From an uncultured Myxococcales bacterium (lineage in GTDB: Bacteria; Myxococcota; UBA4151): 64,000 bases of DNA. Below the pieces are notes generated by a model. That model searched no databases, was not told where the DNA came from, and saw nothing but the letters and a program-made list of their open reading frames with translations. Where the stretch lies: assembly GCA_964013405.1 (NCBI GenBank), contig CAXGWI010000005.1:3411-67410 (forward strand), read 5' to 3'. This document shows positions 1-9,670 of the stretch, in pieces; position 1 is the first letter of the stretch; each line of letters opens with the position of its first letter. The position numbers and the translations under genes are program-made.

Positions 1-601
1 ACAACTTGGGCAAAGGCGCATCGGTGATGGCAAAAGCCAACATGGTGGCCAGGTTGGGGGCGATCATCCCGGCCCCTTTGCCCACCACCGTCACCGTGTA
101 GGAACCCACCGTGGCGCTCTGGATTTTGGGGCCTTGATCGGTGGTCATGATGGCCTGGGCAAAAGCCATCAAGCCTTCGTTGCCGTCATTTAACTGGGAA
201 AAAGCCGCCGGCAGGCCGCCCAACAAAGCCTCGGCGTCGAGGGGGCGACCGATGACCCCGGTGCTCGCCACCTGGATCTCATAGGCCGGACAACTTAACT
301 GGCTCGCCACCTGCTGGGCTGTGGCCTCCGCCGCCGCCATCCCCGCCGGGCCCGTGCAGGCATTGGCGTTGCCCGAGTTCACCACCACGGCCCGGCACCG
401 CTCGCCCGCGCCGTGGGCTCGGCTCAATTGAACCGGCGCAGCCACCACTTGGTTTTGGGTAAAGCGGGCCGCCAAAAGGCCGCTTTTTTCGGCCACGATG
501 AGCCCTAAATCCAGTTGCCCTTCGCCCTTTAAGCCGCAGTGCACGCCGCTCAGGCGGAAGCCGGGGACAGCCTTCGCCCCCTCGAGCATCGAGATGGTCA
601 T
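1..601 (-). CDS. argJ: Glutamate N-acetyltransferase / ornithine acetyltransferase ArgJ (N-terminal ~200 aa; the gene runs off the left edge)
   Basis: Minus-strand translation from ATG at 601 reads MTISMLEGAKAVPGFRLSGVHCGLKGEG...GAGMIAPNLATMLAFAITDAPL. It contains the ArgJ self-cleavage ATML motif and a typical ArgJ N-terminus. The six-frame track missed it because it runs off the window edge. Confidence 0.8.
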   Translation of the reverse strand, partial: MTISMLEGAKAVPGFRLSGVHCGLKGEGQLDLGLIVAEKSGLLAARFTQNQVVAAPVQLSRAHGAGERCRAVVVNSGNANACTGPAGMAAAEATAQQVASQLSCPAYEIQVASTGVIGRPLDAEALLGGLPAAFSQLNDGNEGLMAFAQAIMTTDQGPKIQSATVGSYTVTVVGKGAGMIAPNLATMLAFAITDAPLPKL

Positions 602-729
602 GATCCCTCTCCGGCGCCTTCCTAGCCTGCTTCGCTGCGCTGGGAAACCGGTGCTGGCTTTTCGCGGCCATCGGACACTTGCCCGAAAAGGACCTGCGCC
701 CTTAAAAAGGGCGTGCTACACCACGATGG

Positions 730-2151
730 GTGCCAGCCCTGAGGTTTCACGTGCTTGCTTTGTCGCTCCGCCTTGTTTCGGTTTGGGCGCTGATCGGTCT
801 CAGCGCCGGTTCCGCGTGGGCGAGCCTGTGCTCCAACGACGCCCAATGCAGCCGAGCCTGGGAGCGTTGCCTTTCAGGCCACGGCATCTCCAGCCAATGC
901 GGCCCCGAGCCCAAGCTGCTGAACTACAAATGGCAACTCATCGGTGAAAGCGGCAGCAACTGTGGCTTTACCGAGACCGTCCGCCTCACCGGCAATTATG
1001 GCGAATGCACCACCGACAGTGATTGCAGCGACGACCGAGTCTGCGCCCAGGGATTTTGCCGCCAAGAACGCTGCGTGGGCCGGGTCAGCTATTATGTGGA
1101 TCCGGCCGGCAGCGATGATTTTTCGTCGGCGGAGCGCAGCAAATCAACCCAAGCGGTGGAAGATGCCATGCGCAGTTGGAAGCTGGTGCCCTGTACCGTC
1201 TGGGACGCAGCCTCCCGAGACGTGCCCGACAACATGACCTGGAGCGCCGCCAACGATGGCCTCAACAAGTTCTTCTTCATGGAGGAGGGCTTTCGGGGCC
1301 TGGGCGGGCCCAGCACCCTGGGCATCACCGTCTCCCACTTCCAAGGGGGCGGCTCCCCCACCAGCGACGCCGACATCGTCTTTAACGGCCAAGATCACCG
1401 CTGGACCAGCCGGGACGCCGGCAGCGGCAGTACGGATATTTTTTCCGTCGCTCTGCACGAGATCGGTCACTTTTTGGGCCTGGGTCACCCCTGTGAACTG
1501 GCCCAAGGGGACTGCTCCGTGGACGCGGTCATGAACCCCACCTGGAGCGGCCAGCCCGAAGTGGGCCCCCGCCCCAGCGATGCTCTGGGCGTCTGCGAGC
1601 TCTATCCCGGCGTTCGCCCCCCGGTGGACGACGGCAGCATGCGCTTGGGCGAGCCCTGCACCACCGATTGCGAATGCGCTTCGGGGATCTGCCGCTACGG
1701 CCAATGCAGCCGTCGCTGCCGCATCGATGACCCCTGCCCCCAGGCCGGCGGCACCAAATGCGTGCTGGCCCGCAACGGGGAAGGCCTGTGCATGAGCCCG
1801 GTCTTCGTGGGCGAAGGCCAAGCCAAATACCCCCTGGGTGCCCAGTGCTCCCCCCGGGAGGAGCACAAGTGTGAAAGCGGTCGATGCACCTTTGTCGACA
1901 TCCGTGGAGTTCGCTATGGTCTCTGCACCACCGCGTGCTCCGATGATGCCGACTGTTCCCCAGGTACGGTCTGTCGGGACGGCAGTTGTCTCTTAGACGA
2001 CCAGGTGGCTGAGCCCTGCACCTCGGGACCCGATCCCGTGGATCCAGGCGAGGGCTGCTCCTGCCAAGGGAGCGGCTCGGGTCTGGCCTTATTGATGATG
2101 GGCGGCGCGTTGTTTCTGCGACGACGCCGCGAGAGGAGTTCGTTCCCATGA
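730..2151 (+). CDS. Secreted matrixin-like (metzincin) zinc metalloprotease with C-terminal Cys-rich repeats and a MYXO-CTERM-type sorting tail
   Basis: Signal peptide (LALSLRLVSVWALIGLSAGSAWA). HEIGHFLGLGHP matches HExxHxxGxxH, with a downstream Met-turn VDAVMNP. C-terminal repeats follow the pattern CxxDxDCxSGxCxxGxC. The terminal GCSCQGSGSGLALLMMGGALFLRRRRE is MYXO-CTERM-like. The start codon is GTG at 730, with an alternative GTG at 751. Confidence 0.7.
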   Translation: MPALRFHVLALSLRLVSVWALIGLSAGSAWASLCSNDAQCSRAWERCLSGHGISSQCGPEPKLLNYKWQLIGESGSNCGFTETVRLTGNYGECTTDSDCSDDRVCAQGFCRQERCVGRVSYYVDPAGSDDFSSAERSKSTQAVEDAMRSWKLVPCTVWDAASRDVPDNMTWSAANDGLNKFFFMEEGFRGLGGPSTLGITVSHFQGGGSPTSDADIVFNGQDHRWTSRDAGSGSTDIFSVALHEIGHFLGLGHPCELAQGDCSVDAVMNPTWSGQPEVGPRPSDALGVCELYPGVRPPVDDGSMRLGEPCTTDCECASGICRYGQCSRRCRIDDPCPQAGGTKCVLARNGEGLCMSPVFVGEGQAKYPLGAQCSPREEHKCESGRCTFVDIRGVRYGLCTTACSDDADCSPGTVCRDGSCLLDDQVAEPCTSGPDPVDPGEGCSCQGSGSGLALLMMGGALFLRRRRERSSFP

Positions 2152-2699
2152 GAAGTCTTTTGCTGTTGAGCAGCCTTTGTGTGGCCAGCGCCGCCCAAGC
2201 CACCGTCGTCCTGAAAATGGACCGGGCCGAGATGACCCAGATGAGCGATGACGTGCTGATGGTTCGAGTCGGTGCCCAGCGGGTGGTGGAAGAACAACCC
2301 GGCGCCCTGGTGACCCTGACCGATCTGGAAGTCCTCGAAAGCTTCAAAGGCAAGTACGAGGCCGGCGACACCGTGCTCTTGCAGCAAGCCGGCGGGGTGA
2401 AGGGTGACTGGGTGATGCACATCCCCGGCAAGAACACCTACCGTTTCGGTGAAACTTTGGTGCTCTTTTTAAATCGTCACCGAGACCGGGTGGTGCCCGT
2501 GGGCGTCGGCATCGGCCGCATGGTGGTCGAGGGGGAAGGCGACAGTGCCCTGTTGAAGGAAGAGTACGGTGATGTGGCCTTCGCTGAGCGTAACCCCAAA
2601 GGGAAAATGCGCTTCATGCACGGACCCCCGCCGAGCAAGCCCGTGAAACTCAGCGTCTTTCGCCGCTGGATCAGCAGTCTCTTGGAGGGCTCGCGCTGA
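2148..2699 (+). CDS. Small secreted hypothetical protein (183 aa) embedded between two metzincin genes
   Basis: Signal peptide MRSLLLLSSLCVASAAQA. A GAGAGGAG Shine-Dalgarno sits 9 nt upstream. The start overlaps the upstream stop as ATGA (2148-2151), and the stop overlaps the downstream start as TGATG (2697-2701). I recognise no known domain. Confidence 0.5.
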   Translation: MRSLLLLSSLCVASAAQATVVLKMDRAEMTQMSDDVLMVRVGAQRVVEEQPGALVTLTDLEVLESFKGKYEAGDTVLLQQAGGVKGDWVMHIPGKNTYRFGETLVLFLNRHRDRVVPVGVGIGRMVVEGEGDSALLKEEYGDVAFAERNPKGKMRFMHGPPPSKPVKLSVFRRWISSLLEGSR

Positions 2700-4687
2700 T
2701 GCGTCTTCTCCTCGTCATGACCGCCTTAAGCCTCGCCACCCCGGCGGCGGCTTGGCAGGCGCAGATCGGCAAGTGGAGCCTCGATGGCTCGCCCAACATC
2801 GCCTACCGCGTGAACACCCGCGGGGCTCCCGGCATCGCCGGCGACTCGGATCTGCAAGCCATTCGAAACTCCTTCGACAGTTGGAGTGGTGTGAGTTGCT
2901 CCACCATCAACCTGGTGGAGTCTGGGACCACGAACAATTTACCCAACGCCCGCCGGGACAACGTGAACAATGTTTGGTTTGAAACCCGTGCCAATGCTTG
3001 GAGTTATGGCTCCGGCACCCTGGGCATCACCGGGACCTCCTTCTCGGGCTTTGGTTGTCGGGGCAATGGTCGGCCCGCTCGGGATTGCTGGATCGTCGAT
3101 GCCGATGTGCAGTTCAATGCGGTGCAACACGCAGACGGCTGGAGCACCAACGGGCGCGGCGGCTTGGACGTGGAGTCCATCTCCGTCCATGAGATCGGGC
3201 ACAGTCTCGGCCTCGATCACCCCTGCGAAAACTGCACCGTCGATGCGGTGATGACCCCGTCGTATGTGGGCTATCCCTTTCGCTATCCCCGCCAGGATGA
3301 CACCAACGCCGTTTGCAGTCTTTATCCCGGTGAGCGGGGCGGCCTCGGTTGGGGCTGCAACCGAGACTCCGACTGCAATTCCCGTATTTGCCTGGATGAC
3401 GGTTCCAACGATTACTGCACCGTGACCTGTGGGAACTGCCCGGACGGCTACGAGTGTCGGGCCGACAATGGTCGCAATGTCTGCCAACGGGCGGCCGCTG
3501 GCAGTGGCGCGGCCCAGCAAGGCGAAAGCTGTGCTGGCGGTCGGGCCTGCGGACCGGGCCTGCTGTGCCTGGGCGATCAAAACGACGCCACCTGCTATGC
3601 CGAGTGCGACCGGGGCAATTGCGAGGCCGGCTTTATTTGCGAAACCTTCTCATCCAATGGGCAAAACATCTCCATTTGCTTGCCCGGTGGCACCACTGCT
3701 GAAGGGGAGCCATGCGATTCGCTGTATGCCTGCGCGGCGGGCCTGGAATGCGCCCCTGTGGGTCGTAGCTATGTTTGTGCCAGAGGCTGCCGGAGCGACA
3801 GCGATTGCAACGAGCGCGAGAACTGTCAGGAGTTGACCCGGCCCGGCATCGACACGGTCCAGGTCTGTGTGGAGTCCAACACCGCCCTCGAAGGGGAGAG
3901 TTGTCAGCGTAAGCGTTGCGCCGATGGTCTGACCTGCTTGAGTGATGCGGGCGAACGGCTTTGCTTTCGCAACTGTCGCAGTCGGGCCGACTGCAGCTCG
4001 GGCCTCGACTGCATCGAGATCAGCGATACGATCTCCATCTGCTATGCCAACAACTGCACCGAAGACCGGGACTGCGAGCGGGGTAAAATCTGCCTCGAAG
4101 GCAGTTGCGTGGACGAGACCGGTGGCTGCCGAGCCGATACCGAATGCCGCCGGGGTGAGCTCTGTGAAAACGGTGAATGCACGCCCTTCGAAAGCAATGG
4201 TGATCTGCCGGACAACGAACGCTGCGCCGACGATGGCGACTGCGTGTCGGGTCGCTGTGCAGCCATTGGCTCCACTCGGGTTTGTCGCCCCGGCTGCGAT
4301 CGCCGCCTGGGGCACTTCGAATGCCCCGAGGGCTTTGGCTGCATCCCCGACGATGAAGGCAATGGCTATTGCGAGCGCGGCGCCGACGAAGGGGGCCAAA
4401 GCATCGGTAGCCCCTGCAGCAGCGCCATCGAATGCCGCCAAGGCATCTGTGGCAGCGACTGGGGCTTTGGTGGCGAATGTCTCACCTGGTGTGGCGAGAA
4501 CTTCATCTGTCCCACGGGCTATCTCTGCGATTCGGCCAACAACCCCATGCCCGGGCTCTGTGTGCCCGAAGGGGGCGGTGTCGCCCCCGGTCTGGCCTGT
4601 GCCTGTGAGGGCACGACACCGGACTTCTGGTTCATGGGATTAGGACTGCTCGCAGTGCTCGGTTGGCGTCGCCGCCGCTCAGCCTAA
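2699..4687 (+). CDS. Secreted matrixin-like zinc metalloprotease 2 with an extended Cys-rich repeat region and a MYXO-CTERM-type tail
   Basis: Signal peptide MRLLLVMTALSLATPAAA. HEIGHSLGLDHPC is followed by VDAVMTP. There are more than ten CxxDxDC/CxxGxC-type repeats. The C-terminus is ACACEGTTPDFWFMGLGLLAVLGWRRRRSA. Confidence 0.7.
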   Translation: MRLLLVMTALSLATPAAAWQAQIGKWSLDGSPNIAYRVNTRGAPGIAGDSDLQAIRNSFDSWSGVSCSTINLVESGTTNNLPNARRDNVNNVWFETRANAWSYGSGTLGITGTSFSGFGCRGNGRPARDCWIVDADVQFNAVQHADGWSTNGRGGLDVESISVHEIGHSLGLDHPCENCTVDAVMTPSYVGYPFRYPRQDDTNAVCSLYPGERGGLGWGCNRDSDCNSRICLDDGSNDYCTVTCGNCPDGYECRADNGRNVCQRAAAGSGAAQQGESCAGGRACGPGLLCLGDQNDATCYAECDRGNCEAGFICETFSSNGQNISICLPGGTTAEGEPCDSLYACAAGLECAPVGRSYVCARGCRSDSDCNERENCQELTRPGIDTVQVCVESNTALEGESCQRKRCADGLTCLSDAGERLCFRNCRSRADCSSGLDCIEISDTISICYANNCTEDRDCERGKICLEGSCVDETGGCRADTECRRGELCENGECTPFESNGDLPDNERCADDGDCVSGRCAAIGSTRVCRPGCDRRLGHFECPEGFGCIPDDEGNGYCERGADEGGQSIGSPCSSAIECRQGICGSDWGFGGECLTWCGENFICPTGYLCDSANNPMPGLCVPEGGGVAPGLACACEGTTPDFWFMGLGLLAVLGWRRRRSA

Positions 4688-6136
4688 GCGTTCACGAGCC
4701 CAAGCCGCCGCTCGCTTGCCGTGGAGTAAGGCGTCTTCCATGGCGCTGTACTCCCAGTTGCCGTAGCGCCCCGCGCTCAGGACCGACTGGGATTCCAGCC
4801 AGCCGACCAGAAGGTCCCGTGCGGCACCATGGTGGTCATCATTGAGCACATAGGCGTGGGCGATGGACTCACCCCAGCACTCGAGGATGGAGTCTGGACC
4901 GTCGATGAGGCCGGCCTCGGTGAGCCCCGTCGCCACGGCATCGAAGTGATCCATGGGGTCAAAGCCTCCCCGGTGGGCGAACTCCACATAGAAGTTGCGG
5001 GTGGCACCATCGGTCATGTTGGGCTCCACCGCGGAGAAACTGCCCACCCGGTAAAAGGGAAAGCGGGCTTCGGGGAAATAGGTCCAATGGGGCTGTCCGG
5101 CCCCGTCCCATGGACCCTTCTGGTCGTGATTGCTGCCTTTGGCCAAGACATCGAGATGGGCCACAAAGGTCGACTGCAGCCGTGATCTCGCCTCAGCCAC
5201 CGCCTCGGGCAGCGGCGCGACCCGAGCGGCCAAATCGATGGCGACGGGCAGGGGGAGGCTGGTGAGCAGGGTTTGATAATGGGTCCAGACCCCATCGGCT
5301 CGTTGTACCCGCTTGTTTTCGAGGTCGATGGCCGTGATCTCGACACCCAACTCGATGGGTGCATCCGTCGATCGCCGCACCGCATCGGCCAACTCTTGAA
5401 TCCCCCGGCCCGAGGGGGGGTAGAGGAAGTGGGCATTGTAACCCAGGGCTTCCCGGGAGGCCCCCACCGCACCGGCGATCACATCCTCGACTTTTGGCAC
5501 CGGGATGTATCGGTCGCACCAGCCGGCGCTCAATTCTCGCGGGTGGGTGGTCCAGATTTTTTGATTGTAGGGCACCATGAAATGCTCGGCGATGCCGGCG
5601 CCGAATTTTTGCAGGATCCAGTCCTCAAAGGTCTCCGGCTCAGGGCGCGTCCGCGGGGCATCGCTTGATTCTAAATCGTGAAGACGGGCATCGACGAAGC
5701 CTTGGAGGCACTCCCTCGCAACGGTCGGCGGCAAGCCGAAGGTGTTGGCCTGAAAAGGGTAGAGGGTGTAGACGCCATGGCTGAAAATCCGCGCCTTGCG
5801 GTCGTGTTTTTGCAAGGTGAGTCCCGGCAGTTTCGGCACCCATTCCAACATGTAGGGATCCCGCAAATGCAGCCAGTGGCCGGTGATGTCGAAGCGTGCC
5901 CCTTGCCGTTCTCGGGTCCGGGCTTTGCCCCCCACTTGGTTTAAGGATTCGAGGACACGGGCCCCTTCTCCGAAGTGGGCAGCCGCCGACAGTCCGGTCA
6001 AGCCGGCACCTAAAATCAAAAAGGGCTGTTGATCCAAGGGTCGACCTTTGCTTGCTAAGCGGCCAGCGCCCTGTAGAACAAAGGCAAGCATCCCGCCAAG
6101 CACCCGAGGACGTGAAGTGGATCTAAGCGTTGTCAT
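4679..6136 (-). CDS. FAD-dependent oxidoreductase (amine-oxidase / UDP-galactopyranose-mutase-like Rossmann fold)
   Basis: N-terminal dinucleotide-binding motif LILGAGLTGLSAAAHF...VLE...VGG. The C-terminal GRYGNWEYSAMEDA resembles UGM/amine oxidase C-termini. The true start may be the internal ATG at 6091 (MLAFVLQGAG...). Confidence 0.5.
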   Translation of the reverse strand: MTTLRSTSRPRVLGGMLAFVLQGAGRLASKGRPLDQQPFLILGAGLTGLSAAAHFGEGARVLESLNQVGGKARTRERQGARFDITGHWLHLRDPYMLEWVPKLPGLTLQKHDRKARIFSHGVYTLYPFQANTFGLPPTVARECLQGFVDARLHDLESSDAPRTRPEPETFEDWILQKFGAGIAEHFMVPYNQKIWTTHPRELSAGWCDRYIPVPKVEDVIAGAVGASREALGYNAHFLYPPSGRGIQELADAVRRSTDAPIELGVEITAIDLENKRVQRADGVWTHYQTLLTSLPLPVAIDLAARVAPLPEAVAEARSRLQSTFVAHLDVLAKGSNHDQKGPWDGAGQPHWTYFPEARFPFYRVGSFSAVEPNMTDGATRNFYVEFAHRGGFDPMDHFDAVATGLTEAGLIDGPDSILECWGESIAHAYVLNDDHHGAARDLLVGWLESQSVLSAGRYGNWEYSAMEDALLHGKRAAAWARERLG

Positions 6137-6824
6137 TCCGGTCTATAACGAGGAGGCCATCCTCGAAGAGGCCCTCGTTGGCCTCTTTGAAGACCTCTCC
6201 GCCCATGCCGGTGACTATGAGGTGATTCTGTCCATGAATGGCTGCGTGGATCAAACCGAAGCCATCGCAGAGCGCTTGGCGAAGGCAGAGCCTCGGTTGC
6301 AACTTCATCGCTGTCCCACCCCCGACTACGGCCAGGCCTTGAAAGAGGGCATCGAACGAGCCCGGGGTGCGCTGGTGATCTGCGAAGAGATCGATCTGTG
6401 TGATGACCGCTTTCATCGCACCGCCCTTGCGATGCTGTTGGCCGATCCGGAGTTGGACATGGTCGTGGGCTCCAAAGCCCTCCAGGGCGCCCGGGATCAG
6501 CGCCCTTGGACCCGCCGCATGGCCACCCGCATCCTCAATCGTATGCTCCGGGCCGCCACCGGTTGGCGGGGCACCGATACCCATGGCTTGAAGGCCCTGC
6601 GCCGAGAACGCCTGTTGCCCGTGATCTCCCGCTGTGAGCTTCGAGCGGATCTCTTCGCCAGCGAGATGGTCATTCGGGCCAACCTCGATGGCCTGCGTGT
6701 GGTGGAATATCCCATCGAGTTGATGGAAAAACGCCCCCCCAGCGTCGCGCTGGTGCGCCGGGTCCCGAAGGTCCTGACGGGCATGGTGAAACTGGCCACG
6801 GCCGTGCGCCGACGGGGCGACTAG
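6048..6824 (+). CDS. Family 2 glycosyltransferase (polyprenol-phosphate sugar synthase / DPM1-like)
   Basis: LSVVIPVYNEEAILEE...YEVILSMNGCVDQT is a GT2 N-terminal signature, and the length matches the DPM1-like group. The start is probably GTG at 6117, since the annotated 5' end overlaps the divergent oxidoreductase gene. Confidence 0.75.
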   Translation: MLAKRPAPCRTKASIPPSTRGREVDLSVVIPVYNEEAILEEALVGLFEDLSAHAGDYEVILSMNGCVDQTEAIAERLAKAEPRLQLHRCPTPDYGQALKEGIERARGALVICEEIDLCDDRFHRTALAMLLADPELDMVVGSKALQGARDQRPWTRRMATRILNRMLRAATGWRGTDTHGLKALRRERLLPVISRCELRADLFASEMVIRANLDGLRVVEYPIELMEKRPPSVALVRRVPKVLTGMVKLATAVRRRGD

Positions 6825-8125
6825 TCGCTGTCTTTCAGGCGACGATAAATCGTCCGCACCCCAAGACCTAAGGCCTTCGCAGCCTGTTCCCGGTTGCCGT
6901 TGTAGCGATGGAGCGTCCATCGGATCACCTCGGACTCGATCCGCTTCATATCCCAGTCGGGCAGGATCTGGAGCCCGGCTTCGGCCCCCGGTGCACGGGG
7001 GCTGCCGAAGTCCTCGGGCAAGGCATCCAAGGCCTCGCCGGGATGGAGGGCACAAAGACGGGCACAATAATGACGCAGTTGGCGAATGTTGCCGGGCCAG
7101 GCCTGCTTTTGCAGGGACTCCAAAGCCTGGGGCCCCAGCTTCGGTGCGCTGGTACCCCCTTGCTGTTCGAGGAAATGGGCCACCAGCAAGGGGATGTCAT
7201 CCCGCCGTTCGGCCAGCCGGGGGATGGTCAAGGTCGCGCCGGCGAGCCGGTAGTAGAGATCCTCCCGCAGGCGCTCACCCACCTCCCGGTTGGTGGCGCT
7301 GACAACCCGCACATCGACAGCGATGGGTTGATTGCTGCCCAGGGGCGTCACCTCACCGTTCTCAAGAATGCGCAGCAGTTTCGCCTGCACGCTCATGGGC
7401 ATCTCGCCGATCTCGTCGAGAAACAAGGTGCCGCCGTCGGCCTCCTGGAAGCGGCCGATTCGCTTGCGGTCGGCCCCCGTAAAGGCCCCCCGGGTGTGAC
7501 CGAACAACTCGCTCTCAAGAAGGCTTTCGGGGATGGCCGCGCAATTGATGGCCACGAAGGGCTTGGTGCCCCGGGGGCCGCCGTAGTGCAGGGCCCGGGC
7601 TGCCAACTCTTTGCCGCTGCCACTGTCCCCTTGAATCAGGATCGGGAGATCGGAGGGGGCGAGGCGGTCCAATTGTTGTCGCAACTGGTCCACAGCCGCA
7701 CTGGCACCGAGAATCTCACTGCCGCTCTTTTGCGCCACCTGGTGGCGCAGCCGCTCCACCTCGCTGCGCATTCGGACCCGCTCGCCGGCCCGGCGGACCG
7801 TCTCCACCATCAAGTCGGGATCGAGGGGTTTGGTCAGGAAGTGGAAGGCGCCATCGCCCATGGCCCGGGCCGCCACATCGGCCGTGCCGTAGGCGGTCAT
7901 CAACACCAGCTCAGGGGCGGCCCGCTCGCTCTTCAAGGTGCTCAGCAAATCGAGGCCGTCCATGCCAGGCAGCATCAAATCGGTGAGCACCACCTCGCAA
8001 GGAGGACGGGCGGCCAGATAGTCTTCGGCCCGTTCAAATGCGGTCACGTCGAAGCCGGCCCGGGCCAGGATGGCGGCGGCGACTCGACGCCCCCCCGGGT
8101 CGTCCTCTACCAGGCTGACGCGCAA
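6821..8125 (-). CDS. Sigma-54-dependent response regulator (NtrC family: REC + AAA+ + HTH)
   Basis: REC domain (VVLTDLMLPGMDGLDLL). Walker A GDSGSGKE. GAFTGA motif in ELFGHTRGAFTGA. The C-terminus TIYRRLK is a Fis-type HTH. Confidence 0.85.
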   Translation of the reverse strand: MRVSLVEDDPGGRRVAAAILARAGFDVTAFERAEDYLAARPPCEVVLTDLMLPGMDGLDLLSTLKSERAAPELVLMTAYGTADVAARAMGDGAFHFLTKPLDPDLMVETVRRAGERVRMRSEVERLRHQVAQKSGSEILGASAAVDQLRQQLDRLAPSDLPILIQGDSGSGKELAARALHYGGPRGTKPFVAINCAAIPESLLESELFGHTRGAFTGADRKRIGRFQEADGGTLFLDEIGEMPMSVQAKLLRILENGEVTPLGSNQPIAVDVRVVSATNREVGERLREDLYYRLAGATLTIPRLAERRDDIPLLVAHFLEQQGGTSAPKLGPQALESLQKQAWPGNIRQLRHYCARLCALHPGEALDALPEDFGSPRAPGAEAGLQILPDWDMKRIESEVIRWTLHRYNGNREQAAKALGLGVRTIYRRLKDSD

Positions 8126-8182
8126 GGCTTGTTCTCCCCTCTAAAGCTGGTGCAGTCTTCGTACGAAAAGGGGACTTAGTCC

Positions 8183-9670
8183 ATGGGCAAACTGCCCTTC
8201 GGTCCGGTGATTGCTGCGAGCCTTAGTGGGCCCGGATCTTCCCTACAGTTCGCAGATCACCAGCGCCGGGACCAACCGGAAGCGGGGAGCCTCGATGCTG
8301 CCCATTTCTTGCTGGTGGTGGCCGAGCGCGCCGTCCTGCATTCGGTGCAGCGGGCCGGCCATCGGCCCAGTCGCTGCGTTGTCCTTGCCGAGCAACAACA
8401 GTTGCTGGAGCGGGCCGGTGCCGATCCGGTCAAGCCCCCGGCCGCCAGCCTGCCCCCCGAGCAGATCCATGGGCTGCTGCAGCGCATCGCCCCGGATTTG
8501 GCCCGTTATGGACTCACCGGGGTGTCCCGCTTGGAGGCGGACTTTGCCCCGGTTCTGGAGGCCATGGAGGCCCGGGGCCTGCCCTTGGACGTGCCCGCCT
8601 GGCGGCAGGTGCTCGCCGAGGCTGAGGGCCGGGCTGCGGCCGCCCGCACCCGACTCGGGGCCTCTGTGGGTACGGATTTAACCGGCAATCCGAACCTGGA
8701 GCCCGGCGAGCGAGGCCGTATTCTGGCCTGGTTTCAAGCCGAGGGTTACCCCATCCAGTCCACCTCGAAACACGCCCTCGGGGGCCTCGATCATCCCGCG
8801 GCCAAGGCCCTGCTGGACTGGCGGGAGGCCGCCAAACTCACCAGCACCTACGAGGGCTATCTCGACCGCCTGGCCGGAGGGCGTATCTTTGGTCGCTTTC
8901 AAGGCCTGGGCGCGGCCAGTGGGCGCATGAGCTGCGGTCACCCTAATCTGCAAAACATCCCGGCCCGTCTCCGGCCCTGCGTCCGGGCCCCGGAGGGGCG
9001 GGTCTTGGTCAGCGCAGACTATTCGGGCTGCGAGCTGCGCATCGTCGCCGCCCTGTCCCGAGACGAGGCCCTCATCGAAGCCCTCCTCGAAGCCGACTTT
9101 CACTCGGCCGTGGCCCGCCGGCTTTTTAATCAGCCGGTCTCCAAAACCGAAAACCCCGAGCTTCGACACCAGGCGAAGGGCATCAACTTTGGCCTGCTCT
9201 ACGGCATGGGGGCCAAGTCCTTGGGTCAGGATCTAGGCATCAGCACCTCCGAGGCCCGGGCTTTGATGGACCGTTATTTTGAGGGCTTTCCCCGCCTGGC
9301 CCAGTGGCGAAAAGAAGCCCTCGAAGCCCCCAAGCAGCAGGGCTTTTTGCGGACTCGACTCGGCCGTCGCCTCGCCGTGGATCGGCAACGGGACATCGGG
9401 CCCTTAGCCCTGAACTTTCCGGTTCAAGGAGGCGGGGCAGACTTGATCAAACGGGCGGCAGTCCGGGTGGAGCAGGGCCTCGCAAAAGCGGGTCTCGATG
9501 GCCAGTTGGTCAACATGATTCACGACGAACTTCTCCTCGAAGCCTCCGCGCCCGATGGGCAAGCGGTGGCCGAGTTGGTCAAGGGGGAGATGATCACCGC
9601 CGGGGCCGAGTTGTTCAAGGAAGTCCCGATGGCCGTCGACGCCGCCGTCTCGGCGAACTGGGCCCACTAG
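8183..9670 (+). CDS. Family A (Pol I-like) DNA polymerase, polymerase domain only (no 5'-3' or 3'-5' exonuclease domains)
   Basis: Motif A VLVSADYSGCELRIVAALS. Motif B RHQAKGINFGLLYGMG. Motif C LVNMIHDELLLE. The C-terminus VPMAVDAAVSANWAH resembles Klenow. The protein is only 495 aa. A divergent sigma-54 regulator gene ends 57 bp upstream, leaving no room for exonuclease domains. Confidence 0.8.
   Translation: MGKLPFGPVIAASLSGPGSSLQFADHQRRDQPEAGSLDAAHFLLVVAERAVLHSVQRAGHRPSRCVVLAEQQQLLERAGADPVKPPAASLPPEQIHGLLQRIAPDLARYGLTGVSRLEADFAPVLEAMEARGLPLDVPAWRQVLAEAEGRAAAARTRLGASVGTDLTGNPNLEPGERGRILAWFQAEGYPIQSTSKHALGGLDHPAAKALLDWREAAKLTSTYEGYLDRLAGGRIFGRFQGLGAASGRMSCGHPNLQNIPARLRPCVRAPEGRVLVSADYSGCELRIVAALSRDEALIEALLEADFHSAVARRLFNQPVSKTENPELRHQAKGINFGLLYGMGAKSLGQDLGISTSEARALMDRYFEGFPRLAQWRKEALEAPKQQGFLRTRLGRRLAVDRQRDIGPLALNFPVQGGGADLIKRAAVRVEQGLAKAGLDGQLVNMIHDELLLEASAPDGQAVAELVKGEMITAGAELFKEVPMAVDAAVSANWAH

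Follow-up and report, generated by a model that had tools for sequence, protein, structure and literature searches.

What does a small secreted protein do between two predicted surface proteases? The question is raised by three adjacent genes in a 64,000-nucleotide stretch of DNA from an uncultured Myxococcales bacterium (the window; positions 3,411 to 67,410 of contig CAXGWI010000005.1, GenBank assembly GCA_964013405.1). The genes, which we term P1, P2 and P3 like their products, encode a matrixin-like metzincin, a protein of 183 residues and a second, longer metzincin. An earlier interpretation made from the letters and their open reading frames (ORFs), referred to here as the sequence-only reading, had not recognised this arrangement as a characterised module. 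Here, we show that P2 belongs to a large family whose members stand next to metzincin genes, and that its predicted fold is that of the tissue inhibitors of metalloproteinases (TIMPs) and related NTR domains. The best overall explanation is an operon that encodes proteases together with their cognate TIMP-like inhibitor, a reading that we hold with moderate confidence.

The three genes form a single translationally coupled operon. P1 and P2 share four nucleotides (cATGAg) and P2 and P3 share one (cTGATGc). The reading frames and overlaps listed in the sequence-only reading agree exactly with the ORF list and with the junctions as we read them, and the overlapping stop and start codons bear out the translational coupling of the three genes that it had proposed. 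The identical gene order, with the same overlaps, is found in four further loci, where P2 is 98% (L003), 71% (L001), 52% (L002) and 50% (L004/L005) identical to the protein studied here. Since the arrangement is kept in four other loci, these are real conserved genes and not a chance layout. The nearest public sequence is L003, from the marine metagenome-assembled genome (MAG) 'Myxococcales bacterium EAC29', and through it the host can be placed in the Myxococcota, which the sorting of MYXO-CTERM proteins requires in addition to a myxosortase (MrtX, MrtC or MrtP).

Both large proteins match the Pfam model Peptidase_M10 (PF00413) above its gathering cut-off of 24 bits, P1 with 40.5 bits and P3 with 38.9 bits. 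The match in P3 spans residues 33-209 and model positions 6-158. The zinc-binding signature HExxHxxGxxH and a Met-turn are present in both proteins: in P1 HEIGHFLGLGH is followed by PCELAQGDCSVDAVMNP, and in P3 HEIGHSLGLDH is followed by PCENCTVDAVMTP. Among the sequences of solved structures the best match of P1 is MT1-MMP, a matrix metalloproteinase (MMP), and the best matches of P3 are MMP-12, MMP-1 and the bacterial, MMP-like karilysin. The two catalytic domains are 34% identical to each other (E 2e-28). Judged from these matches, P1 and P3 are paralogous matrixin-type (M10-like) zinc endopeptidases, which is what the sequence-only reading had taken them for. A cysteine-switch propeptide (PRCGxPD) is not seen in the translation of P3, and the N-terminal extension of P1 contains no PRCG motif. 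As the M10 match of P3 begins at residue 33, right behind the signal peptide, P3 has no propeptide. The cysteine-switch propeptide is also absent from many bacterial M10 members.

The small protein is less easily placed. P2 matches no model in Pfam or NCBIfam, and its close homologues number only five. A profile search of 1.84 billion cluster representatives (50% identity) nevertheless returned 4195 relatives at E ≤ 1e-3 and 508 at E ≤ 1e-10, almost all of them 180-230 residues long. None of the relatives scanned has a Pfam match in the P2-like domain. Relatives of named origin occur in Polyangia MAGs and in cultured Archangium, Vitiosangium and Corallococcus, and all are annotated 'hypothetical protein'. 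In one metagenomic protein of 338 residues (P0099), which may be a true fusion or a merged gene call, a P2-family domain (residues 156-324) follows an N-terminal MauE/DoxX membrane domain. A profile search of the sequences of solved structures with the P2 family found nothing. A first AlphaFold2 run with 6 close homologues gave a mean predicted local distance difference test score (pLDDT) of 49 and was discarded. Rerun on an alignment of 62 sequences, the program produced a model of mature P2 with a pLDDT of 88.6 and a predicted template modelling score (pTM) of 0.84. This model is a five-stranded barrel of the oligonucleotide/oligosaccharide-binding (OB) type with flanking helices that can be superposed on the N-terminal domain of TIMPs (N-TIMP) and on NTR domains. 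Fold searches, including Foldseek, classify it as TIMP/NTR-like, and the structure closest to it is an inhibitory N-TIMP domain in complex with a protease.

TIMPs bind the catalytic zinc through the alpha-amino and carbonyl groups of residue 1, and their inhibitory ridge is made up of the N-terminal segment and the C-D connector (PMC9890683). The corresponding positions of P2 were placed with hhalign against human TIMP-1 to -4, used for the register only, with TIMP sequences that were compared with the chains in the Protein Data Bank (PDB). In this register L22 of P2 lies on V4 of the TIMPs, and with this pairing Thr19, the predicted first residue of mature P2, falls on the TIMP Cys1. The same register puts the pair G82-G83 where TIMPs have the C-D connector, which makes up the second half of the ridge. 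Across 205 family members, position -3 of the predicted cleavage site is Ala in 168 and position -1 is Ala in 192, and position +1 is Thr in 185 or Ser in 14. G82 is kept in 201 and G83 in 203 of these 205 sequences, and the conservation of position +1 equals that of the core glycines G82, G83 and G94. Signal peptidase does not require a fixed sequence at positions +1 to +3, so that the conservation of Thr or Ser suggests a role of this residue in the mature protein.

The genomic context ties the family to metzincins. Our sample comprises 14 loci with readable context whose small proteins are 23-98% identical to P2. In 14 of 14 the P2-family gene lies immediately upstream of a gene for a metzincin with a signal peptide and the HExxHxxGxxH motif. 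The gap between the two genes is -4 to +38 nt in 12 loci, with a shared base or a 4-nt overlap in L015 and L016. Thirteen of the 14 partner metzincins end in a tail made of Cys, a helix and RRR. The remaining one, in L011 (4561-6660), is a metzincin of 699 residues with a single Cys and a Solibacter-type C-terminal domain (TIGR03437, 217 bits) in place of a MYXO-CTERM tail, and it follows its P2-family gene with a 4-nt overlap. The pairing is thus independent of MYXO-CTERM and reaches beyond the Myxococcota. With the fold and the synteny taken together, we regard it as highly probable that P2 is a TIMP/NTR-like protein and a partner of metzincins.

In three loci the small gene is followed by two metzincin genes: Corallococcus sp. 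(L015, 5001-7371, GCA_019039035.1), Archangium violaceum (L016, 5001-7473, CP069338.1) and the metagenomic locus L014. In L015 and L016 the small gene is divergent from a glutamyl-tRNA-synthetase-like gene. Both metzincins of L015 and L016 and the first of L014 are true members of NF041905, the MXAN_2677/MXAN_2678 family of myxosortase-dependent metalloproteases (349-375 bits against a cut-off of 250). The second metzincin of L014 is cut by the end of the contig and was recognised by its HEIGHAIGLDH motif alone. The L015 and L016 metzincins also give a sub-threshold match to the sister model NF041938, the 'MYXO-CTERM-anchored inactivated metalloprotease' with RSIGE in place of HEIGH. NF041905 is the closest curated family for P1 and P3 as well, and these are relatives of the family and not members (37.2 and 43.7 bits against the same cut-off). 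Like P1 and P3, NF041905 members occur in tandem and have MYXO-CTERM tails, and in Corallococcus, Archangium and L014 a P2-family gene stands ahead of theirs. In contrast to these proteins of about 300 residues, P1 and P3 carry long Cys-rich stalks, and their genes flank the small gene. The conserved unit is one small protein with one or two metzincins, and the window holds a permuted, long-stalked version of it. Since most relatives have the small gene followed by a single metzincin gene, the sandwich of the window is a local permutation and not the core design. Metzincin then small gene is also the order in another lineage, represented by P0033 (586 residues). This metagenomic protein, in which an M10 domain, a Cys-rich stalk and a MYXO-CTERM tail are joined to a P2-like part, was considered as a 'Rosetta-stone' fusion and was rejected as probably a merged gene call. 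Its P2-like part keeps a signal peptide of its own after the RRR, which points to two merged genes, and we use it as evidence of adjacency only. Contrary to the impression of an arrangement without parallel, a small gene coupled to a metzincin gene thus recurs across the phylum, and operons for a protease and its inhibitor have precedents.

A TIMP/NTR-like fold and a coupled metzincin bring the locus into the class of operons that encode a protease with its cognate inhibitor, of which the potempin/KLIKK, AprI/AprA and Listeria Mtz/Tim systems are examples. In the potempin/KLIKK system of Tannerella forsythia a small gene likewise lies immediately upstream of the gene for a secreted MMP-like protease and is co-transcribed with it (PMC9890683). 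The potempin PotA has an OB-fold beta-barrel, as does the P2 model, and inhibits the MMP-like karilysin (PMC9890683). Potempins protect the envelope of their producer (PMC9890683), a role that may be proposed for P2 as well. However, potempins are outer-membrane lipoproteins, whereas P2 has an AxA site for type I signal peptidase and no lipobox. PotA inhibits through two loops and a zinc-binding Asp and not through its N-terminus. The target proteases of the potempins use type IX secretion and a KLIKK C-terminal domain, in contrast to the MYXO-CTERM tails and the type II route expected for P1 and P3. No potempin structure was among the top structural matches to the P2 model.

In Listeria monocytogenes the metzincin gene mtz adjoins tim, whose product resembles TIMPs in a Phyre2 prediction (PMC8235301). 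The pair is conserved in many Gram-positive bacteria, and bacterial TIMP-like proteins had not been recorded before as far as the authors could find (PMC8235301). The likeness between Tim and P2 is taken from the description of Tim and not from its sequence. There are also clear differences: mtz precedes tim, Tim is a lipoprotein and is cut by the metzincin near residue 50, and what has been described is an influence on the cell wall and phage lysis. AprI and the Serratia inhibitor Inh (I38) come close to the role that we propose for P2, as periplasmic inhibitors of the cell's own secreted metzincin (AprA, serralysin) that are encoded beside it. They insert their N-terminal residues into the active site, where the terminal amine coordinates the zinc (PMC8235301). 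The proteases in question are, however, substrates of type I secretion, unlike P1 and P3, and the P2 model does not show the eight-stranded up-and-down beta-barrel of AprI/Inh.

Compared with the TIMPs themselves (TIMP-1 to -4; for example N-TIMP-3, PDB 3cki, and TIMP-1, PDB 1uea), P2 shares a domain that begins at the mature N-terminus once the signal peptide is removed, the spacing from the N-terminus to helix 1 and strand A, a 'KG' at the end of strand B and a tie to matrixin-type metzincins, in the case of P2 a genetic one. It differs from them in having no detectable membership of the sequence family, Thr for Cys at residue 1 and no disulfides. An insert of about 18 residues follows the equivalent of the C-D connector, and the C-terminal TIMP domain is missing. 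P2 is furthermore bacterial and operon-encoded, and its inhibitory activity is a prediction.

P1 ends in GEGCSCQGSGSGLALLMMGGALFLRRRRERSSFP and P3 in GLACACEGTTPDFWFMGLGLLAVLGWRRRRSA. Both show the three-part layout of MYXO-CTERM tails, GCSC...LALLMMGGALFL-RRRR in P1 and ACAC...FWFMGLGLLAVLGW-RRRR in P3. The ACAC of P3 is a variant, and its orthologues have GCGC or GCAC at this place. Full-length P1 scores 17.5 bits with TIGR03382 (cut-off 15.85) and 12.5 bits with TIGR03901 (cut-off 20), and the tail scanned alone reaches 23.9 and 21.0 bits, respectively. The P1 orthologue in L002 scores 24.8 bits with TIGR03901. The MYXO-CTERM tails that the sequence-only reading had claimed for both proteins thus hold in layout for P1 and P3, and in P1 also by model (TIGR03382, and TIGR03901 for the tail alone). 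The anchoring pathway resembling exosortase or archaeosortase that it had attached to them is contradicted by the literature on myxosortase. By analogy with known clients, the sorting of P1 and P3 would depend on the CPBP protease myxosortase and on type II secretion. Proteins with a MYXO-CTERM tail acquire their fold in the periplasm, still attached to the inner membrane, ahead of type II export (PMC11980579). They finish as lipid-anchored outer-membrane proteins, and myxobacteria exchange outer-membrane material (PMC11980579; PMC3325183). The invariant Cys is presumably lipidated before myxosortase cleaves. As in P1 and P3, a stalk of Cys-rich repeats precedes the tail in TraA and other surface proteins of the MYXO-CTERM class in Myxococcus xanthus (PMC11980579). 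The same route of Sec export, lipidation, cleavage by myxosortase, type II secretion and lipid anchoring in the outer membrane is expected for all of them. TraA itself is a recognition receptor with a PA14-like head and not a protease.

In loci of the Polyangia type a gene for a CPBP/Rce1-like intramembrane protease adjoins the pair of small gene and metzincin gene. It is found on the minus strand and divergent from the small gene in L007 (4180-4986), L010 (4186-4875) and L012 (1599-2402), and in L014 at 1724-2494. The best NCBIfam match of these proteins is the archaeomyxosortase MrtA, with 67-93 bits under a cut-off of 200. The neighbouring CPBP protease could be a dedicated sorting protease for the metzincins with a tail of Cys, helix and RRR.

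The mechanism that we propose combines these elements. P1 and P3 would be exported by Sec and, in analogy to TraA, would fold in the periplasm while tethered through the C-terminal helix. Removal of the signal peptide would expose Thr19 of P2 at the position that Cys1 occupies in TIMPs. The free N-terminal segment and the adjacent Gly-Gly loop could then enter the active-site cleft like a wedge and coordinate its catalytic zinc. P2 would hold the proteases inactive in the periplasm for as long as they await export, a task for which P3 has no propeptide. Once the tail Cys is lipidated, myxosortase would remove the helix and the type II secretion system would put the lipid-anchored enzymes on the cell surface, where they would act at the tips of their stalks. 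P2 itself could by then be released, retained or degraded. That P2 is a cognate inhibitor of one or both operon proteases is in our view probable. Binding of the zinc through the N-terminus in the manner of TIMPs is the more tentative part of the proposal, and we would put its likelihood somewhat below even.

Several points weigh against the inhibitor reading. The Pfam models for TIMP (PF00965), NTR (PF01759) and NtA (PF03146) match none of 52 family members at E ≤ 10, and one member outside these 52 matches NtA at E 0.058. The hhalign probabilities between P2 and human TIMP-1 to -4 are only 10-21%, and homology at the level of sequence is not established by them. A genuine, if very remote, common ancestry of the P2 family with the TIMP N-domain, as opposed to convergence on an OB fold, is unlikely. 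The free Thr19 depends on a signal-peptidase site which, although the AxA/T pattern is kept in about 97% of the 205 members, is placed by the -3/-1 rule only. The conserved disulfides of TIMP-1 are Cys1-Cys70, Cys3-Cys99 and Cys13-Cys124. Mature P2 contains no cysteine at all, the only one being in the signal peptide, so that any TIMP-like ridge would need a support other than the Cys1-Cys70 bond that fixes it in TIMPs. Furthermore, the NTR fold occurs in proteins that are not inhibitors, such as agrin NtA, the complement C345C domain and the NTR domain of PCOLCE. On the side of the proteases, P3 matches neither TIGR03901 nor TIGR03382 at E ≤ 1, as full protein or as isolated tail, and here the tail claim made earlier falls short. 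Finally, we infer inhibition by P2 from fold, synteny and conservation only.

In the strongest competing reading, P2 is an NTR-fold partner of the proteases that does not inhibit them: a periplasmic escort or foldase acting as a propeptide in trans, an exosite adaptor or enhancer, or a bridge between the two enzymes. The PCOLCE NTR domain and agrin NtA as binding modules could serve as models, as could, more loosely, TIMP-2 in its complex with MT1-MMP and proMMP-2. The strict synteny and the coupling establish a functional link and not its direction, and the lack of the TIMP disulfides fits a partner of this kind. A folding helper could offset the missing propeptide of P3 just as well as an inhibitor. 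For a bridging role it may be added that the set of one small protein and two metzincins is seen in the window and again in L014, L015 and L016. However, the highest conservation outside the core glycines is found at the predicted free N-terminus, in the place of the TIMP Cys1, a feature for which a general binding module would have no use. The structure closest to the model is moreover an inhibitory N-TIMP from a protease complex, and the characterised bacterial couples of a small gene and a secreted protease that we found are all inhibitors (PMC9890683). We consider a non-inhibiting partner a rather unlikely alternative.

It is also conceivable that P2 inhibits the proteases but that its main role is immunity at the surface or between cells, where it would shield the producer or kin that receive outer-membrane proteins. 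This variant draws on the same fold and synteny as the favoured reading of periplasmic latency control. The lipid anchoring of MYXO-CTERM clients and the exchange of outer membrane between cells would give it an occasion (PMC11980579; PMC3325183), and potempins guard the outer membrane of their own producer (PMC9890683). P2, however, has a type I signal peptide only, with neither a lipobox nor a tag for sorting to the surface, and no data distinguish surface immunity from latency control in the periplasm. We judge immunity as the main role to be improbable.

Very improbable is a picture along the lines of the sequence-only reading, with an uncharacterised complex of fixed stoichiometry that is anchored through an exosortase- or archaeosortase-like pathway and contains a small protein without recognisable relatives. 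The stop/start overlaps on which it drew are real and P2 does lack a Pfam or NCBIfam match, but relatives of the protein number in the thousands and its TIMP/NTR-like model is confident, most relatives pair the small gene with one metzincin gene, and the myxosortase literature speaks for another route. A LolA-like periplasmic carrier for lipidated MYXO-CTERM C-termini, which a beta-rich periplasmic protein of about 180 residues beside MYXO-CTERM clients and the CPBP gene adjoining the small gene in some lineages might suggest, was rejected on the fold search of the P2 model and on the L011 partner, which keeps its small gene without a MYXO-CTERM tail, and has next to no chance of being correct.

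We return to P2 as a proposed TIMP-like inhibitor of its neighbours and to what this would mean. To our knowledge, TIMPs are regarded as animal-specific, and bacterial MMP-like enzymes are usually seen as oddities or as horizontal acquisitions. What has been found here is a large family without a Pfam or NCBIfam model that is tied gene-to-gene to matrixin-like proteases across the Myxococcota and in at least one lineage of the Acidobacteria type. Literature searches on TIMPs together with Myxococcus and on bacterial OB-fold TIMP-like inhibitors gave no description of the P2 family, and a search on MXAN_2676 to MXAN_2679 found nothing. The class of operons encoding a protease with a cognate inhibitor is itself known. 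New is a large family of inhibitor candidates with a TIMP-like predicted fold that we found described nowhere, together with client proteases that would take the MYXO-CTERM route. If P2 inhibits, the pair would be a bacterial counterpart of MMP and TIMP, it would explain why propeptide-free surface proteases on the MYXO-CTERM and type II route are harmless in the periplasm, and it would offer a disulfide-free TIMP scaffold for engineering. It would also assign a function to the 'hypothetical protein' upstream of genes of the MXAN_2677/2678 type. Should the unlikely case of true homology apply, the matrixin/TIMP pair, usually deemed an animal invention, would have a bacterial counterpart or origin, with a Cys-free TIMP scaffold. 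Myxobacteria and some other bacteria would then own a complete operon-encoded MMP-like/TIMP-like system in which zinc is bound via the N-terminus without disulfides. Because members of the P2 family occur in cultured Corallococcus and Archangium, the idea is directly testable.

P1 contains 34 Cys and P3 contains 64, and the coordinates of the stalk modules are given with the other features in Table 1. The CxxDxDCxSGxC pattern by which the sequence-only reading had described the modules is a fair shorthand for them, as judged from the Cys positions. The P3 stalk gives weak matches to DUF7107 in the Pfam scan, and the stalks of P3 orthologues give weak matches to TIGR04201 (Myxo_Cys_RPT). The modules stay under the thresholds of the curated Myxococcus Cys-repeat models.

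Table 1. Features of the P1-P2-P3 operon; nucleotide positions count from the first letter of the window, and a slash marks the predicted cleavage site.
Feature	Position (nt)	Residues (aa)	Strand	Remarks
P1	730-2151	473	+	ORF, GTG start; matrixin-like metzincin
P1 predicted signal peptide	730-822	1-31	+	cleavage AWA/S
P1 N-terminal Cys-rich extension	823-1074	32-115 (84 aa)	+	
P1 catalytic domain	1075-1629	~116-300	+	Pfam PF00413
P1 zinc motif HEIGHFLGLGH and Met-turn Met268 (DAVMNP)	1456-1533	243-253 (zinc motif)	+	from regular expression and translation
P1 Cys-rich stalk	1642-2019	305-430	+	about two 8-Cys modules; aligns to P3 stalk modules
P1 MYXO-CTERM tail	2047-2148		+	GEGCSC, hydrophobic helix, RRRR
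Shine-Dalgarno-like AGGAG	2134-2138		+	within P1 3' end; 9 nt ahead of P2 start
P2	2148-2699	183	+	ORF; small secreted protein (predicted signal peptide)
P2 predicted signal peptide	2148-2201	1-18	+	cleavage AQA/T
P2 mature TIMP/NTR-like domain (predicted)	2202-2696	165 aa	+	
P2 predicted mature N-terminus	2202-2216	Thr19-Val-Val-Leu-Lys	+	proposed zinc-binding, active-site-blocking segment
P2 Gly82-Gly83	2391-2396	82-83	+	nearly invariant; equivalent of TIMP C-D connector in register (weak hhalign)
Shine-Dalgarno-like GGAGG	2684-2688		+	within P2 3' end; 10 nt ahead of P3 start
P3	2699-4687	662	+	ORF; matrixin-like metzincin
P3 predicted signal peptide	2699-2752	1-18	+	cleavage AAA/W
P3 catalytic domain	2753-3343	19-215	+	starts directly past signal peptide
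P3 zinc motif HEIGHSLGLDH and Met-turn Met185 (DAVMTP)	3188-3253	164-174 (zinc motif)	+	
P3 Cys-rich stalk	3344-4573	216-625	+	six 8-Cys and two 4-Cys modules, 56 Cys (from Cys positions)
P3 three-part tail	4580-4684		+	GLACAC, hydrophobic helix, RRRR

On the left of the operon, an argJ-like gene (ornithine acetyltransferase) on the minus strand is divergent from P1 and exits the left end of the window, with its N-terminal part at window positions 1 to about 640. The equivalent position in L001 holds a minus-strand gene of 395 residues with a Pfam ArgJ match, and ORFs of matching size and position are present in L004 and L005. Downstream, an amine-oxidase/FAD-type gene (4679-6136, minus strand) is convergent with the operon, and its end overlaps that of P3 by 9 nt. 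It is followed by genes for a GT2 glycosyltransferase (6048-6824), a sigma-54 response regulator (6821-8125, minus strand) and a DNA polymerase of the A family (8183-9670). A link of these downstream genes to the operon is not evident, and their order (4679-9670) is identical in L001. Scans for Rfam families, tRNAs and promoters gave no result bearing on the operon. The numerous antisense ORFs are most likely by-products of the G+C content of about 63%.

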